A stretch of DNA of 51,277 nucleotides, from IMG/VR virus record IMGVR_UViG_2851955134_000001; one strand, given 5' to 3'. Numbering within the stretch: the first letter of the stretch is position 1; each line of letters starts with the position of its first letter. This document shows positions 2,459 to 10,013 of the stretch, in pieces. Under the pieces are notes generated by a model. The model did not search any database and was not told the DNA's origin. It was given only the letters and a program-made list of their open reading frames with translations. The position numbers and the translations under genes were made by a program. Source of the stretch: a virus. Taxonomy: Duplodnaviria; Heunggongvirae; Uroviricota; Caudoviricetes.

Positions 2459-3136
2459 ATGTCCATCATTTTTAATGGACACTATCGTATGAAACACCGG
2501 ACCTGGATCACTGAAGCTTTACGTCTTCACTTTGAAGAACATTTACCCCGGGTTGTGGCCGGGCGTCGCCTGGGTGTACCAAAATCAACAGTTTGCAGTA
2601 TGTTCGTGCGCTTTCGGAGAGCTGGCCTTTCGTGGCCTTTGCCCGCAGGCATGTCGGAGCAGGAACTTGATGCCTGCCTTTACGGACAATTTTCCACGGT
2701 ACCAGTCGTACGTCCTGAAAGCACCGTTATATCCGAAGCCCCCGTGGTAAAAAAACGTCCCCGGCGGCCCAACTTCCCTTATGAGTTTAAAATCGCCTTA
2801 GTGGAACAGTCACTGCAGCCCGGAGCCTGTGTGGCGCAGATCGCCCGGGAAAACGGAATCAACGATAACCTGCTCTTCAACTGGCGCCATCAATACCGGA
2901 AAGGTGGCCTGCTGCCTTCCGGAAAAAATATGCCGGCACTGCTTCCCGTGACGTTAACGCCGGAGCCGGATAATAAAATCCCGGCTCCGGCACAGGAACC
3001 AGAGCAGATAAATACACCGTCCGACAGTCTGTGTTGTGAGCTGGTTCTGCCGGCCGGAACTCTCAGGCTTAAAGGTAAACTGACGCCGGCGTTATTACAG
3101 ACACTTATCCGCGAAATAAAAGGGAGCAGCCACTGA
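2459..3136 (+). CDS. IS66-family accessory protein TnpA (start may be the internal ATG at 2489)
   Basis: First ORF of the IS; stop overlaps the tnpB start (ATGA at 3136). Confidence 0.65.
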   Translation: MSIIFNGHYRMKHRTWITEALRLHFEEHLPRVVAGRRLGVPKSTVCSMFVRFRRAGLSWPLPAGMSEQELDACLYGQFSTVPVVRPESTVISEAPVVKKRPRRPNFPYEFKIALVEQSLQPGACVAQIARENGINDNLLFNWRHQYRKGGLLPSGKNMPALLPVTLTPEPDNKIPAPAQEPEQINTPSDSLCCELVLPAGTLRLKGKLTPALLQTLIREIKGSSH

Positions 3137-3483
3137 TGATATCTCTCCCTGCAGGTTCGCGTATCTGGCTGGTTGCCGGTATCACCGATATGCGAAATGG
3201 CTTTAACGGCCTGGCCTCAAAAGTTCAGAACGTCCTGAAGGATGACCCGTTCTCCGGACACCTGTTCATCTTCCGCGGACGCCGGGGTGACCAGATAAAA
3301 GTGTTGTGGGCTGACAGTGACGGACTGTGCCTCTTCACCAAACGCCTGGAGCGGGGCCGCTTCGTCTGGCCGGTTACCCGTGACGGCAAGGTGCACCTTA
3401 CTCCGGCTCAGTTATCTATGCTTCTTGAAGGTATCAACTGGAAGCACCCGAAACGAACGGAACGCGCTGGCATTCGCATATAA
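3136..3483 (+). CDS. IS66-family TnpB (Orf2)
   Basis: 115 aa with sequence MISLPAGSRIWLVAGITDMRNGFNGL... characteristic of IS66 Orf2, as recalled. Confidence 0.85.
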   Translation: MISLPAGSRIWLVAGITDMRNGFNGLASKVQNVLKDDPFSGHLFIFRGRRGDQIKVLWADSDGLCLFTKRLERGRFVWPVTRDGKVHLTPAQLSMLLEGINWKHPKRTERAGIRI

Positions 3484-3502
3484 CCCGTTGTAAAGTGAGG
3501 AT

Positions 3503-5074
3503 ATGGACACCTCACTTGCTCATGAGAATGCCCGCCTGCGGGCACTGTTGCAGACGCAACAGGACACCATCCGCCAGATGGCGAAATACAACCGCCTGCT
3601 CTCACAGCGGGTGGCGGCTTATGCTTCCGAAATCAACCGGCTGAAGGCGCTGGTTGCGAAACTGCAACGTATGCAGTTCGGTAAAAGCTCAGAAAAACTT
3701 CGTGCAAAAACCGAACGGCAGATACAGGAAGCACAGGAGCGAATCAGCGCACTTCAGGAAGAAATGGCGGAAACGCTGGGTGAGCAATATGACCCGGTAC
3801 TGCCATCCGCCCTGCGCCAGTCTTCAGCCCGTAAACCGTTACCGGCCTCACTTCCCCGTGAAACCCGGGTTATCCGGCCGGAAGAGGAATGCTGTCCTGC
3901 CTGTGGTGGTGAACTCAGTTCTCTGGGATGTGATGTGTCAGAGCAACTGGAGCTTATCAGCAGCGCCTTTAAGGTTATCGAAACACAACGTCCGAAACTG
4001 GCCTGTTGCCGGTGCGACCATATCGTGCAGGCACCGGTGCCTTCAAAACCCATTGCACGCAGTTATGCCGGAGCGGGGCTCCTGGCCCATGTCGTCACCG
4101 GAAAATATGCAGACCATCTGCCGTTATACCGCCAGTCAGAGATATACCGCCGTCAGGGTGTGGAGCTGAGCCGTGCCACACTGGGGCGCTGGACTGGTGC
4201 CGTTGCTGAACTACTGGAGCCGCTGTATGACGTCCTGCGCCAGTATGTGCTGATGCCCGGTAAAGTCCATGCTGATGATATCCCCGTCCCGGTCCAGGAG
4301 CCGGGCAGCGGTAAAACCCGGACAGCCCGGCTGTGGGTCTACGTCCGTGATGACCGTAACGCCGGTTCACAGATGCCCCCGGCGGTCTGGTTCGCGTACA
4401 GTCCGGACCGGAAAGGTATCCATCCACAAAATCACCTGGCCGGTTACAGCGGTGTGCTTCAGGCCGATGCTTACGGTGGTTACCGGGCGTTATACGAATC
4501 CGGCAGAATAACGGAAGCCGCGTGTATGGCTCATGCCCGGAGAAAAATCCACGATGTGCATGCAAGAGCGCCCACCGACATCACCACGGAAGCCCTGCAG
4601 CGTATCGGTGAACTGTATGCCATCGAGGCAGAGGTCCGGGGCTGTTCAGCAGAACAGCGTCTGGCGGCAAGAAAAACCAGAGCCGCGCCACTGATGCAGT
4701 CACTGTATGACTGGATACAGCAACAGATGAAAACACTGTCGCGTCACTCAGATACGGCAAAAGCGTTCGCATACCTGCTGAAACAGTGGGATGCACTGAA
4801 CGTGTACTGCAGTAATGGCTGGGTGGAAATCGACAACAACATCGCAGAGAACGCCTTACGGGGAGTGGCCGTAGGCCGGAAAAACTGGCTCTTCGCGGGT
4901 TCCGACAGCGGTGGCGAACATGCGGCGGTGTTGTACTCGCTGATCGGCACATGCCGTCTGAACAATGTGGAGCCAGAAAAATGGCTGCGTTACGTTATTG
5001 AGCATATTCAGGACTGGCCGGCAAACCGGGTACGCGATCTGTTGCCCTGGAAAGTTGATCTGAGCTCTCAGTAA
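3503..5074 (+). CDS. IS66-family transposase (TnpC)
   Basis: 523 aa; N-terminal leucine-zipper-like region, CxxC zinc motif and C-terminal region typical of IS66 transposases. Confidence 0.9.
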
Positions 5075-5107: not shown

Positions 5108-5353
5108 TTACTTCACGCACGAAACTTTCGTAAACATATCTTCACTCACCCACTGACCATAAAATCTCGGAGCTGATACTTTATACACAGTGCCGCTTTT
5201 CGTTTCTATTTTCCCTGTAAGATCTACCGTATAAGCTCGCTGTAAAACCCCGGGACTCAGCACACCGGTGCACCGGACTCTCTCCGTAACGGAACTGTAC
5301 CCCGCGCAACCTGATACAAGAAACAGCAAAAAAGTGCAGACGATTATTTTCAT
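5108..5353 (-). CDS. small lipoprotein downstream of tail genes; possibly Cor-like superinfection exclusion protein
   Basis: Signal peptide with lipobox LVSGC; 81 aa; the position after the J/tail region matches where cor sits in phi80/HK022-type phages. Confidence 0.45.
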   Translation of the reverse strand: MKIIVCTFLLFLVSGCAGYSSVTERVRCTGVLSPGVLQRAYTVDLTGKIETKSGTVYKVSAPRFYGQWVSEDMFTKVSCVK

Positions 5354-5374
5354 TACATGCCCTCAACATAACTA

Positions 5375-6037
5375 TCAGTACGCATCATAAATTTCTGCAT
5401 TTATGTAATAACAGAGGTTATTAACAACACCTGAATTATCATTGGGCGCCGCTACGTTATCTTCAGCAAAAGTTGACTGACGCCATAACTGTGAGTTTCT
5501 GGCATTAAAACTGGCGGTATACCAGTAATAACTCTCCCCTTCCTGAACTGTCGTCCACTGGGTACACCCCGGCATTACGGCCACATCATGTCCCACACTG
5601 ATCGGTACATCCTTTTCCCATATTCGCGTCATTTTTACTTCCAGTGGCAGCATTTCCGTGTTCCAGACCACCCTGCCATGACTGTCGCACAACTGTATTC
5701 CCCATTGCGGCCATACATTCACCATGTTGGCAAAAACATAAACAACATATGTGCTGTCCTGTTCCATGCCCGGCTCCTGCCCTGTACCAGCGCTGAAAAT
5801 GTCATACTGCCAGGTACCGTTAAGCTGAACCATTTCACCATGGAAGGACTGATTACCGCTTATCTGTTTAATAAAAATCACGCAACGATAATTCGTCGGC
5901 ACCCCGGTGTCGATAAACTGCATCACCGCATCACGCGCACTCAGTGTGAAATGAAAACGGCGCACAAGGTTCAGTGGCGGCGCAACAGGTGATATCCATT
6001 CTCTCCCCCGCTCATCAGTTAATTTAAGTGCAAACAT
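5375..6037 (-). CDS. hypothetical phage protein in the tail tip region
   Basis: ATG at 6037 with AAGGGGGA RBS; 220 aa; no recognisable motif. Confidence 0.5.
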   Translation of the reverse strand: MFALKLTDERGREWISPVAPPLNLVRRFHFTLSARDAVMQFIDTGVPTNYRCVIFIKQISGNQSFHGEMVQLNGTWQYDIFSAGTGQEPGMEQDSTYVVYVFANMVNVWPQWGIQLCDSHGRVVWNTEMLPLEVKMTRIWEKDVPISVGHDVAVMPGCTQWTTVQEGESYYWYTASFNARNSQLWRQSTFAEDNVAAPNDNSGVVNNLCYYINAEIYDAY

Positions 6038-6297
6038 CAGATCCCCCTTATCATGACCAGCACGGGTCTTAGCCAGCTTGTGTTGGCATAGTGCACTGTC
6101 CAGCCGGATACACTGGCACTGGTATGACTTCCCTGACCGTTAATCAGAATGGCCGGTGAACAGACTTCCAGACGCCAGCCCTGCAAAGGAGTATAAGAAC
6201 GCTGCCCCGTCCCTTCAGTGATCACATCCAGCACCCCTGTTGGGTTTATTTCATGTGTCACAAGGCGCCCTTTGCGCCATACCCGGACTCCGAACAT
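6037..6297 (-). CDS. hypothetical small protein translationally coupled to J
   Basis: ATG overlaps the J stop (TAATG); GGGGAG RBS inside the J 3' end. Confidence 0.4.
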   Translation of the reverse strand: MFGVRVWRKGRLVTHEINPTGVLDVITEGTGQRSYTPLQGWRLEVCSPAILINGQGSHTSASVSGWTVHYANTSWLRPVLVMIRGI

Positions 6298-9200
6298 TAC
6301 AGTCTCCCCAGTCGTACTCTTAACACATTGTTATCGTCATATACGTCGATTCGCTCGCCATTGAAAAACAGGCGGCCTGCGCCGGGCCTTCCTGAGTTAA
6401 TTTCAAGGCTGCCGTTTCTTGATAAACGCCACCCCGGACTACCGGAATGAAAATTATCTGACCGGATATCTCCCGTCACTCTGGCAAAATCCACGGTCAG
6501 TTTTTTCATGAAAACATCATTCATGAACAGCTGATCACCCTGAGCCACAAACAAAGGTGTTGTATTGCCATTTTCCGGGTTAATCATCGCAATACGATCT
6601 GCCTGCATCAGGATCTGACTCTGAATTCCGTCAGACGTATTTTCGATTCCGGCACCAATACCTGCAATATAGAGACGTCCATCCCGTGTCTGCTGCAGCT
6701 TCACAGCCCACATGCTGTTCAGGTTCCGGCGCGTGTCCTCCTGAACTTTCTGTATCTGCTCAATGCTGGCATTCCAGGATCCCAGTTTTTTATCCGTGCT
6801 CTGTGTGATCTGACTTCCCTTATCATCAACATACTGTCTGATCTGCGCTATCTGTCGGCTGTTCTCCTCCGTGCTCCTGCTTACTGTCTGCCGGATTTCG
6901 CTGCCCATCCTGTCAACTTTTCTGTCAACTTCCGCAATGGCCATTGACTGTTCAGCGCTCTTTTTCGCCACAACAGTACTTATTTGCGCACTTTTATCAT
7001 CAACATACTGCCTGACCTGCGCTATCTGTCGGCTGTTCTCCTCCGTGCTCCTGCTTACTGTCTGCCGGATTTCACTGCTCACGCTGTCAACTTTCCTGTC
7101 GACTTTCGCAATGGCCAGCGACTGTTCACCGCTCTTTTTCGCCACAACAGTACTTATTTGCGCACTTTTATCATCAACATACTGCCTGACCTGCGCTATC
7201 TGTCGGCTGTTCTCCTCCGTGCTCCTGCTTACTGTCTGCCGGATTTCACTGCTCACGCTGTCAACTTTCCTGTCGACTTTCGCAATGGCCAGCGACTGTT
7301 CACCGCTCTTTTTCGCCACCAGTTCCGTTATGCTGTTTTCAGACGCCGTGATTTTTTTCGTCACCTCTGCGATATCACGCTCCGCACGCTGCCTCACATC
7401 TTTCTCCAACTGCGTCATTTCGCGGTTAATCGCATTCTCCAGCTGCGTCATTTCGCGGTTAATCGCATTCTCCAGTTGCTCAACTTCAGTGCGCCGTGCA
7501 GAGGCATCAATGCGTTCATTGATCTCCCGTCCCAGATGCGTTTTATTTATCGCCCCCCTGAAAAAATTAAGGTAACCGGCAGGATCATTACTCGCCCGAC
7601 CGACTGCCTCCACGAATGCCGATTTACCGACAGTGTTAACACTGCGGATATAAAAGTAATAATCATGGCCAGGCTTAATATTCTGGCCGGAGACAAGCCA
7701 CTGAGTTCCGGTACCAAGATAACGGGCTGTGGTTTCAACCTGCCTGATATCGGTAATCCGCTTTTCCGAAAACCAGAACTCAAACTGCACCGTCGGATCA
7801 TAAACGGCAAGATGCGGCGTGGCGGTTATCTGAAAATAGCCCGGCGTCAGCTCAATCCGCGACGGCGCTGCCGGTGCGGCAATCCGGAACGATACCGACG
7901 CCGGGTCTCCCTGCTGCCCCCGGGCATTTACTGCCCGGACTGTCAGCCTGTAGTTCCCCGGCGCCAGCTGCCTGAAGCGGTATGTGGTTTCCGTCGTCCG
8001 GGCCGTGCTGACCAGCCGCTCACTGCCGTCATCCGCTGCCACGGTCAGGCGAAGCATGAAACTCACGCCTTTCACCACCTTCGGCGTGTCCCAGCGGGCC
8101 AGTACCTGATACTCCCCGCTGTCTGCGGTGACTTCGACAGTCAGGTGCTGCACTGCTGGCGGCGTGACACCATTCACCGTGCCGCTCTGGTCACCGTCAA
8201 AGTGTGCCCCGTTATCCACGATGCCCTCTTTTTCCGGTACATGCTGCACGGCAGTGATGGCATACGTGCCGTCGTCGTTCTCACGGATACTCACGCAGCG
8301 GAACAGGCGCTGGCGCAGCGTCGGCAGCTTCAGCCCCCACACGCTGTACTCGGCAACGCCGTCAGGAACCCGGCTCACTTTTACCTTCACGCCGTCGGTG
8401 ACGGACTGAACCTCCACGCTGACCGGATTGCCACTTCCGTCAACCAGGCTTATCAGCGTGGTACCGGAGGATGGCAGCGTGATTTCACGGTCGAGCGTCA
8501 GCGTCCGGGTCTGGCTGTTCACCGCCAGCACACGACCACCGGTGCTGATACCGGCATAGTCATCATCACAGATTTCAATGACATCGCCCGGTACATGGCG
8601 AAGCCCTTCAGCACCCACGCTGAAATCCACGGTCTGCGTCTCCAGCAGTTCTGTTTTAATCAGCCACAGCCCGGCGCGGTGTGCCTGCCCCCGGCTGGTA
8701 CAGCCAAAGGCATCCATCTTCGTGACGTTACGACCGTAACGGGCAATGGCCTGCGTATCTTCAACAAGCTCTGTCGCCGTCTCCTGGCCGTTATCCGGGT
8801 CACTCCAGTTCACCTCAACGGCATTATGGCGGTCCTTCAGGGCGCTGAAGCTGTAGCGGAACGGCGCGCCATCATCCGGCATCACCACATTACTGCGGTT
8901 ATAGGTCCACACCTTATCCGACGGTCGGTCCTGCACGAACGTCAGCGTCTGCCCGTTCCATACCGGCATACAGCGCATCGCCGAGCAGAAATCACTGAGC
9001 ACATCCCACGCCTTACGCTGTGTGGTCAGCCAGGCATTACAGGTGATGCGCGGCTCCGTGCCGCCAAAGCCGTCCGGCACTGACTGGTCGCAGTACTGGC
9101 CGATGACATACAGCGCCCATTTATCCACATCCGCTGCGCCAACACGTTTCCCCATGCCGTAGCGCGGATGGGTCAGCATATCCCACAGACACCAGGCCGG

Positions 9201-10013
9201 GTTGTTGCTGTATGCCGGTTTAAACGTTCCGTCCCAGATACCGCTGTATTGCCGCGTCTGCGGGTTATAGTTCGACGGCACCTGCAGAATGCGCCCGCGC
9301 AGATGATAATTACGGCTCACCTGCTGGCTGCCGAACTGCTCCGAATCCACCTGCACACCGACCAGTGCCGTGTTCGGGTAGCACTGTTTCACATCGATAA
9401 TTTCGGTGTATGACGACCAGAGCGTTTTGTTCTGCAGCTGGTCTGTGGTGCTGTCCGGCGTCATCCTGCGCATCCGGATACTGAACGGGCGCGGCGGCAG
9501 GTTATCCACCACCACCGAAGCCAGATACTGCGAGGTGGTTTTTCCCTTAATGGTGATGTCTTTTTCCGTTAACCAGCGACCGTTACGCTGTATCTGAACC
9601 AGCAGGCGGACTTCCGACGGATTCCGGTCCCCCTTTGAGGTGGTTTCCACCAGTGCCTGCACACCGAAGGTCAGGCGCAGACGGTCGATGTTTGCCGATG
9701 TGATGGTCCGGGTAATCGGCGTGTCGTACTTCACTTCCGTACCCAGCACCGTCTCGGAGCCGGAGGATTCAAATCCCTCCGGCGGCGTCTGCTCCTGCTC
9801 ACCGGCCCGGAATACCACCGTGACGCCGGATATATTGGTATTCCCCTCACTGTCCAGCACCGGCGTACCGTTCAGCAGCACGCTTTTTAATCCATCCACC
9901 GGTCCTTGTATCGGCCCTTCGCTGATGACATCGATCACACTCAGCAACTGCGTGGACTTCAGGTTGTCCTTCGCTTCGCGCGGGGTATGCCCCTTACTGC
10001 TGCCTTTACCCAT
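6297..10013 (-). CDS. J: tail tip / host specificity protein J with divergent C-terminal region
   Basis: First ~1000 aa closely match recalled lambda gpJ ([24 protein letters not shown]...); C-terminal part contains a coiled-coil repeat insertion and a short divergent end. Confidence 0.9.
6795..7320. repeat. three tandem ~174/177-bp repeats inside J (58-aa coiled-coil units)
   Basis: gctatctgtcggctgttctcctccgtgctcctgcttactgtctgccggatttc recurs at 6847, 7021 and 7198; a shorter 30-bp duplication follows at 7421/7451. Confidence 0.85.

Follow-up and report, generated by a model that had tools for sequence, protein, structure and literature searches.

The central tail fibre of phage lambda, J, contains an alpha-helical shaft, a central straight fibre and a receptor-binding domain, the shaft being a three-helix bundle located between the second fibronectin type III domain (FNIII-2) and the beta-prism of the central straight fibre (PMC11101478). 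In addition, receptor recognition and specificity have been assigned to a locus situated downstream of gpJ (PMC8594841, PMC12309495, bioRxiv 10.64898/2026.04.02.716166 and 10.64898/2026.04.10.717836), the alleles of which track receptor specificity in Drexlerviridae, Dhillonvirus and their relatives (PMC8594841; bioRxiv 10.64898/2026.04.02.716166). In its T1/N15 form, the 'bona fide RBP locus' (RBP, receptor-binding protein) of Maffei et al. (2021), a short tip devoid of receptor-binding domain is combined with a gp23-like gene. Both elements are found in a 51,277-nucleotide (nt) stretch of viral DNA (IMG/VR record IMGVR_UViG_2851955134_000001; Duplodnaviria; Heunggongvirae; Uroviricota; Caudoviricetes), referred to here in its full length as the window, where, in a lambda-like Escherichia coli prophage, they are associated with a J protein whose N-terminal part is that of lambda. 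The explanation that we favour, to which as a whole we would give a probability of around 0.7, is that this J is a central tail fibre put together as a mosaic of three parts, in which a 1.4-kb cassette (window positions 5108-6504) appears to have taken the place of the immunoglobulin (Ig)-like receptor-binding domain of lambda. The locus is a mosaic of known modules and not a new type of system; the arrangement has already been described, and what the window holds is a rare allele. Its features are the following.

6297-10013, minus strand: J, central tail fibre or tip attachment protein, an intact open reading frame (ORF) of 1238 amino acids (aa), from the ORF list and its translation
7569-10013, minus strand: lambda-type hub and two FNIII/Ig domains, aa 1 to ~815 (alignment A1, megablast, GC content)
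6714-7568, minus strand: expanded alpha-helical shaft, presumably a trimeric coiled coil, aa ~816-1100 (no prolines, period of 3.63, AlphaFold2)
7407-7472, minus strand: 11-aa unit in two copies (33-bp duplication), of which other alleles have one copy
7146-7319, minus strand: 58-aa unit 1 (type A), aa 899-956, sharing 174 of 174 nt with unit 2
6972-7145, minus strand: 58-aa unit 2 (type A), aa 957-1014, the additional copy of recent origin, identical to unit 1 throughout its 174 nt
6798-6971, minus strand: 58-aa unit 3 (type B), aa 1015-1072, sharing 146 of 174 nt and 46 of 58 aa with units 1 and 2
6504-6713, minus strand: core of the central straight fibre (beta-prism), aa ~1101-1170 (Phage_Tail_Tip, PF09327, at aa 1084-1209; match to lambda J)
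6300-6503, minus strand: short terminal tip of T1/N15 type, aa 1171-1238, 68 aa (N15 gp21, T1 gp33, tblastn)
6037-6297, minus strand: p86, small gp22-like protein of 86 aa, whose ATG overlaps the stop codon of J (TAATG); phrog_557
5375-6037, minus strand: p220, gp23-like candidate receptor-binding protein of 220 aa, whose ATG overlaps the stop codon of p86 (TGATG); phrog_425
5108-5353, minus strand: p81, Cor-like lipoprotein and candidate superinfection-exclusion factor (lipobox, phrog_1119)

Taken as a whole, J scored 1988 bits with the NCBIfam model lambda_TipJ (NF049904), above its cutoff of 1950, and contains, also above cutoffs and in this order, the Pfam domains FNIII-A_GpJ, Phage-tail_3, Ig_J, Ig_J_second and Phage_Tail_Tip (accessions PF24801, PF13550, PF24421, PF24489 and PF09327). 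In the alignment with the J proteins of lambda and phage 21 (A1), identity was ~95% over aa 1 to ~815, and megablast of the 5' part of the gene returned phage 21, mEp460 and lambda-like phages at 91-93% identity. Beyond ~aa 815 there are ~230 additional residues before J realigns with the other two proteins. Lambda-like identity is then recovered for ~90 aa in the central straight fibre (J aa 1083-1172, equivalent to lambda 844-941), a block that phmmer matched to the solved lambda J chains 8iyk, 8xcj and 9wca with an expectation value (E) of 1e-29, and the last 68 aa again diverge fully from the lambda and phage 21 proteins, which run on for ~190 residues at that point. The original prediction for this locus, made from the sequence without database searches, had J matching lambda over ~1000 aa; this was an overestimate, since high identity stops near aa 815-830 and resumes for the straight-fibre block. 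The GC content is ~60% in the 2.4 kb at the 5' end of J, the lambda-like part, and drops at window position ~7600 to 48-52% in the shaft, the straight fibre and the tip cassette, which fits a different ancestry of all the parts located downstream of the FNIII domains.

A lambda-type C-terminal Ig-like receptor-binding domain, either LamB-binding or similar to that of phage 21, is not present in J according to alignment A1, in agreement with the earlier proposal that the C-terminus is not a standard lambda-type receptor-binding domain. The end of the protein had also been presented as a short divergent tip, and while it is indeed unlike the lambda end, it is by homology of the common T1/N15 type and not unusual: tblastn with the last 67 aa of J matched 971 phage records, including SSU5, HK639, BASEL Drexlerviridae such as Bas11 ('J-like tail tip protein') and T1-like phages of Klebsiella, along with phages of Pseudomonas, Ralstonia and Burkholderia. 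The tip shows 28% identity with the end of N15 gp21, up to the last residues (...VLRVQIGKI in N15, ...VLRVRLGRL here), and the solved T1 gp33 (9l9p) was matched over residues 1028-1168 of 1172, up to its C-terminal end, as were further J-like tips. The limit between the two ancestries could be located by blastn against NRZ14408, an allele with a long receptor-binding domain: identity is 99.5% down to window position 6505 and then ends, which gives a sharp junction at 6504/6505, inside codon 1170 (the K in ...FMNDVFMK). The exchanged unit would therefore be window 5108-6504, which comprises the tip codons, p86, p220 and p81.

Among the proteins encoded in the cassette, p220 matched phrog_425 (the N15 gp23/T1 ST31 family) over its full length with E 3.3e-27, and in alignment A2 it could be aligned end to end with the gp23 family, with conserved motifs throughout; the pairwise comparison with N15 gp23 gave 24% identity, restricted to the N-terminal 120 aa. 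A profile search with p220 recovered a family whose members, of ~220-230 aa, belong to phages and prophages of enterobacteria, and in protein searches 41 representative clusters were found with exhaustive HMMER and two with a word-based search. The best match among phages was 28% identical, which corresponds to a subfamily without cultured phage representative, and the nearest relatives (26-52% identity) are in Stx-type short-tailed phages. The AlphaFold2 (AF2) model of p220, obtained with a 62-sequence alignment, is all-beta, with a predicted local distance difference test score (pLDDT) of 76 and a predicted template modelling score (pTM) of 0.75, while phmmer with p220 and with T1 ST31 against the sequences in PDB gave nothing meaningful. 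In the case of p86, position, size and the overlapping stop and start codons agree with a gp22-type gene placed between J and a gp23-like gene, and alignment A5 takes in N15 gp22, T1 ST32 and Stx2-86 gp27. Pairwise comparison with N15 gp22 gave a weak match (E 0.046), no match to p86 was obtained with tblastn among 50,697 phage records, and no Pfam or NCBIfam model matched p86 or p220. RefSeq and some gene callers give p86 a start 12 codons further in, which makes it 74 aa long; the 86-aa form is probably correct, since it is kept in a 52%-diverged cassette (L015, 3555-3815) and its N-terminus resembles that of N15 gp22. Neither a signal peptide nor a membrane segment was found in p86 or p220, and naming them 'outer membrane protein' and 'membrane associated protein' therefore seems doubtful, as has also been argued by Matusiak et al. 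(PMC12309495).

The third protein, p81 (81 aa), is encoded by an ORF beginning 21 nt past that of p220 and has a signal peptide with a lipobox (MKIIVCTFLLFLVSGC; lipobox LVSGC), the lipobox Cys and two further Cys being conserved in alignment A6. It matched phrog_1119 (Cor) with E 8.6e-7 and is 28% identical to N15 Cor; tblastn against the phage records gave one weak match, an Erwinia phage cor. The gene lacks annotation in the RefSeq record NZ_CP033635.1 (99.7% identical), with no coding sequence between L003 positions 11934 and 12274. The proposal that specificity may involve the ORFs 5375-6037 and 6037-6297 thus finds support in the homology to gp23 and, weakly, to gp22, the gene order and published work, although the Cor-like lipoprotein gene at 5108-5353 had been missed as part of the module.

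Some further observations can be made on this region. p86, p220 and their N15/T1 homologues share a similar N-terminal motif, M-x-[YF]-G-x-x-[IV]-x-x-x-x-G, with a segment containing proline after it, and the J tip has a similar hairpin-like 11-residue motif (motif sites 6240-6297, 5960-6037 and 6300-6440); as a speculation, these could represent a shared strand-exchange docking element. Scans for promoters and terminators between 4900 and 10200 gave sites no more numerous than in shuffled controls. Between the p81 gene and the side tail fibre gene there is an IS66-family insertion sequence (IS) element with tnpA, tnpB and tnpC (2459-5074, plus strand), whose ends were not defined by a scan for inverted repeats. 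The side tail fibre gene itself (592-2325) seems intact, with phage_tail_N and collagen repeats, and is accompanied by a DUF4376 assembly protein (1-576); the IS66 element may uncouple these side-fibre genes from late transcription.

The second part of the mosaic is the shaft, ~285 aa long in this J versus ~50 aa in that of lambda. Tandem Repeats Finder detected one array at 6820-7319 (period 174, 2.9 copies, 96% matches, score 916) and another at 7402-7479 (period 33, 2.4 copies, 95% matches). These results and the unit-by-unit identities listed above bear out the three tandem 58-aa repeats that had been noticed in the original prediction, but their sizes had to be corrected: of the 174/177 bp proposed, only the first figure stands, all three units having 174 bp, and the duplication thought to be of 30 bp is of 33 bp. 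A chance origin is impossible for an exact 174-nt duplicate. J residues 821-1100 include zero prolines and show a single dominant hydrophobic period, of 3.63 residues, and an AF2 monomer of the C-terminal segment of J, low in pLDDT and used for secondary structure alone, has helix at residues 2-160 and 171-285 of the modelled segment. The repeats are a lengthening of the lambda-type alpha-helical shaft, which is presumed to be trimeric as it is in lambda J (PMC11101478). At 3.63 residues per turn, 58 aa make 16.0 turns and 11 aa make 3.0 turns; both unit sizes being whole numbers of turns, adding or losing a unit is expected to keep the register of the hydrophobic core. The shaft would have grown via in-frame tandem duplication of the 58-aa and 11-aa units, and unequal crossing-over would add or remove 58-aa units in length steps of ~8.6 nm with the core register intact. 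If wholly helical, it would measure ~40 nm, versus ~7 nm in lambda.

Variation in the number of units was surveyed in 5,426 complete Escherichia coli genomes, with a threshold of at least 95% identity for a shaft match. The shaft was found in 22 records, only nine of which also had the tip and the downstream genes. Judging by match length, 21 of the 22 alleles have two units and a single one, in NZ_CP033635.1, has three; unit 2 is also missing from most protein alleles, and AB is the commonest arrangement among the protein alleles of a large database. The AAB arrangement is present in the window, ECCNB12-2 and P0012; in P0015 and P0017 unit A is followed by a hybrid (B head, A tail) and unit B; and a lone unit with A head and B tail was found in P0014, P0020 and P0028-30. 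These four arrangements are the products expected of unequal crossing-over between units. An assembly artefact is unlikely for the three-unit allele, since it is also found in the independent complete genome NZ_CP033635.1 and in P0012, an allele from a 4.7-Mb contig. The same shaft is joined in other alleles to a long phage-21-like receptor-binding domain, as in NRZ14408 (1302 aa), and phage PhiR49_2 has a diverged, single-unit form of it. The presence of the repeat-bearing shaft with both types of tip indicates that shaft length varies independently of tip type. P0011, an E. coli J fragment, shows further internal duplications, one of ~22 aa immediately ahead of unit A and one of ~28 aa within the straight-fibre block, which are either another case of slippage in the J gene or an assembly error. 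In the literature searched we found no description of variation in repeat number in the J shaft, nor of register-neutral, copy-number-variable shaft repeats or of the exact cassette junction.

The hub and FNIII domains of J (aa 1 to ~815) close the tail tube. A possible way in which the other parts could work with them is that p220, possibly with p86, docks non-covalently onto the trimeric J tip and recognizes a beta-barrel protein of the outer membrane; a signal would then run up the straight fibre and the shaft and cause the hub to open, as happens in lambda and T5. In the lysogen, p81 would block the same receptor from the periplasmic side and exclude phages of the same specificity. Published models offer parallels: one 'hand-like' gp23-type protein has been placed by AlphaFold-Multimer on a trimeric 'knife-like' tip (PMC12309495), and for Stx phages it has been proposed that the two small proteins form a heterodimer which caps the needle and binds the receptor (PMC12309495; bioRxiv 10.64898/2026.04.10.717836). 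The virion proteome of phi24B includes gp54, a 204-aa counterpart of p220, and its needle tip shows additional density (bioRxiv 10.64898/2026.04.10.717836). A paralogous cassette in the locus L015, within an Stx-phage-like prophage, encodes proteins with 63% (p86), 52% (p220) and 48% (p81) identity to those of the window, and follows a stand-alone fibre of 421 aa that ends ...VYDQNGVVRVRIGRL. Tip end, p86, p220 and p81 co-vary, as physically interacting partners would. In the E. coli draft genomes L011-L015, the paralogous cassette is in a prophage of Sepvirinae type, beside hok/gef and a polyvalent protein of ~2,790 aa (LPD5/LPD1/MuF_C/LPD38); L011 has a transposase gene (HTH_Tnp_1, rve) at the place where L012-L015 have a 541-aa gene upstream of the fibre gene.

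Several results weigh against the mosaic with a receptor-binding cassette. In alignment A2, p220 is only 18% identical to N15 gp23 and 19% to T1 ST31, whereas families of RBPs with a common receptor require >30% identity over >99% coverage (bioRxiv 10.64898/2026.04.02.716166). The match of p86 to phrog_557 (the N15 gp22 family) is weak, with E 2.8e-4, and its identity to known gp22-like proteins in alignment A5 is 12-27%, while p81 stays at 28.7 bits on the NCBIfam model lamb_exclu_cor (NF047972), whose cutoff is 31. As for the shaft, confidence in the AF2 model of the C-terminal part of J is low (pLDDT 54, pTM 0.22), and a model run as a monomer cannot show a trimer; the single-unit alleles come from short-read drafts or short contigs and could be collapsed repeats; and the IS66 element lies directly downstream of the cassette, and the prophage may be defective. 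As an alternative, the short J tip itself could bind the receptor, and p86 and p220 would not be virion parts but assembly chaperones or lysogenic-conversion or membrane proteins. In PHROG and GenBank their families are called 'outer membrane protein' and 'membrane associated protein', Foldseek gave no PDB match, the small protein of phi24B, gp55, was not detected in virions (bioRxiv 10.64898/2026.04.10.717836) and a structural or chaperone-like role has also been raised by Matusiak et al. (PMC12309495); with the homology, the gene order and the presence of gp54 in phi24B virions on the other side, we regard this as improbable. The repeat expansion could, in turn, be functionless, that is, a neutral and transient recombination product in a prophage undergoing decay, or partly the result of misassembly, in which case the J allele need not be functional. 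The full identity of units 1 and 2, which makes the third copy very recent, its presence in just one of the 22 closely related complete-genome alleles, the IS66 element that adjoins the module, the IS elements in related strains and the many related J sequences that are partial and located at contig ends would all agree with this. However, the 1238-codon ORF is intact and all length variants are in frame, both unit sizes correspond to complete turns at the hydrophobic period found, the three-unit state exists in two arrangements (AAB and A-hybrid-B) and the variation occurs with two tip types, while the divergence between A and B indicates that the two-unit state is old and maintained. A lack of function is, on balance, a serious contender that falls somewhat short of even odds. 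We can only infer a function for the length of the shaft, and it seems unlikely to us that the repeats are a length-tuning device, with steps of 8.6 nm and 1.6 nm and a reach selected to fit the thickness of O-antigen or capsule whatever the tip, combined with a p86/p220/p81 receptor specificity not recorded in lambdoid phages (that is, other than LamB, OmpC or FhuA).

With regard to the receptor, the module could be FhuA-specific, and the window would then represent one more cor+ lambdoid phage that depends on FhuA, as do phi80, HK022, N15 and many mEp phages. The gene order as in N15/T1 and the family-level homology to gp22, gp23 and Cor speak in favour of it, as does the receptor of the phages of this family T1, N15 and Dhillonvirus JLBYU60, which is FhuA. 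Cor is known to act on FhuA. However, p220 shows the low identity to N15 gp23 and T1 ST31 indicated above, its nearest relatives are in Stx-type short-tailed phages, the reported receptor of which is BamA (bioRxiv 10.64898/2026.04.10.717836), and p81 does not reach the Cor equivalog cutoff. For these reasons a firm assignment to FhuA was rejected, and FhuA specificity is considered a possibility with the odds against it. As a guess, based on the Cor/gp22/gp23 family, FhuA would still be the leading candidate, BamA and other barrels being candidates as well.

Under the mosaic interpretation, which remains our preferred one, a single locus illustrates the modular basis of lambdoid host range: the hub is that of lambda, the shaft attached to it can vary in length, and the 1.4-kb tip cassette, which belongs to a family common to T1-like, N15-like and Stx phages, has been exchanged at the conserved junction ...FMNDVF(M/L)K. 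Since the closest relatives of the cassette are in Stx-phage-like prophages, the locus is a record of receptor modules having passed between E. coli prophages of siphovirus and podovirus type. The 'outer membrane' and 'membrane associated' labels on p86 and p220 are probably wrong, a point of relevance for annotation, and for host-range prediction the receptor of the p220 subfamily becomes a tractable question.

When compared with known systems, the window shares its layout with N15 genes 21-24 and T1 ST33-ST30, i.e. a fibre, an ORF of ~90-100 aa, another of ~220 aa and a lipoprotein of ~80 aa. All three small proteins match at the family level, p86 weakly and p81 just short of the Cor cutoff, but identities are low (28% for the tip, 18-24% for p220, 28% for Cor); N15 and T1 have a hub of their own type where the window has the N-terminal 815 aa of lambda's J, and the shaft in the window is far longer, with near-identical repeats. 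phi80 and HK022, like N15 and T1, have a J-like tip followed by gp22, gp23 and cor. The same architecture does not imply the same family everywhere, since gp24 and gp25 of HK639, encoded at the same positions, showed no similarity to p86 and p220 in pairwise BLASTP. The RBP of Dhillonvirus Oekolampad (Bas18), which has been described with LptDE (receptor LptD) in a study that also deals with the Rtp45 exclusion lipoprotein (PMC12685063), belongs to another RBP family: it lacks detectable sequence similarity, with 10% identity in a structural alignment, and the match was not confirmed by Foldseek.

The closest relatives of p86, p220 and p81 are those of Stx-type short-tailed phages (Traversvirus phi24B gp56/gp55/gp54; Stx2-86 gp26-28) and of L011-L015, and gene order and start/stop overlaps in Stx phages, as in N15 and T1, are those of the window. 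Their fibre has the same tip end as J in the window and also lacks a receptor-binding domain, but it is encoded separately, as a protein of ~420 aa that sits on the nozzle of a podovirus, whereas here the tip is the C-terminus of a siphovirus hub protein; besides, in phi24B-type loci lom follows the 205-aa ORF, at the place occupied in the window by the Cor-like gene. With lambda J (8iyk, 8xcj) the window shares the hub, FNIII-1/2 and central straight fibre, and the order of shaft and then straight fibre; lambda ends in an Ig-like LamB-binding region of ~190 aa, while in the window there are 68 aa and separate genes, with no lom directly after J. Finally, the NRZ14408-type alleles have A and B units and the 11-aa unit as in the window, mostly with two units, but they carry a covalent receptor-binding domain of ~200 aa with the side-fibre gene next to it, instead of the p86/p220/p81 cassette.

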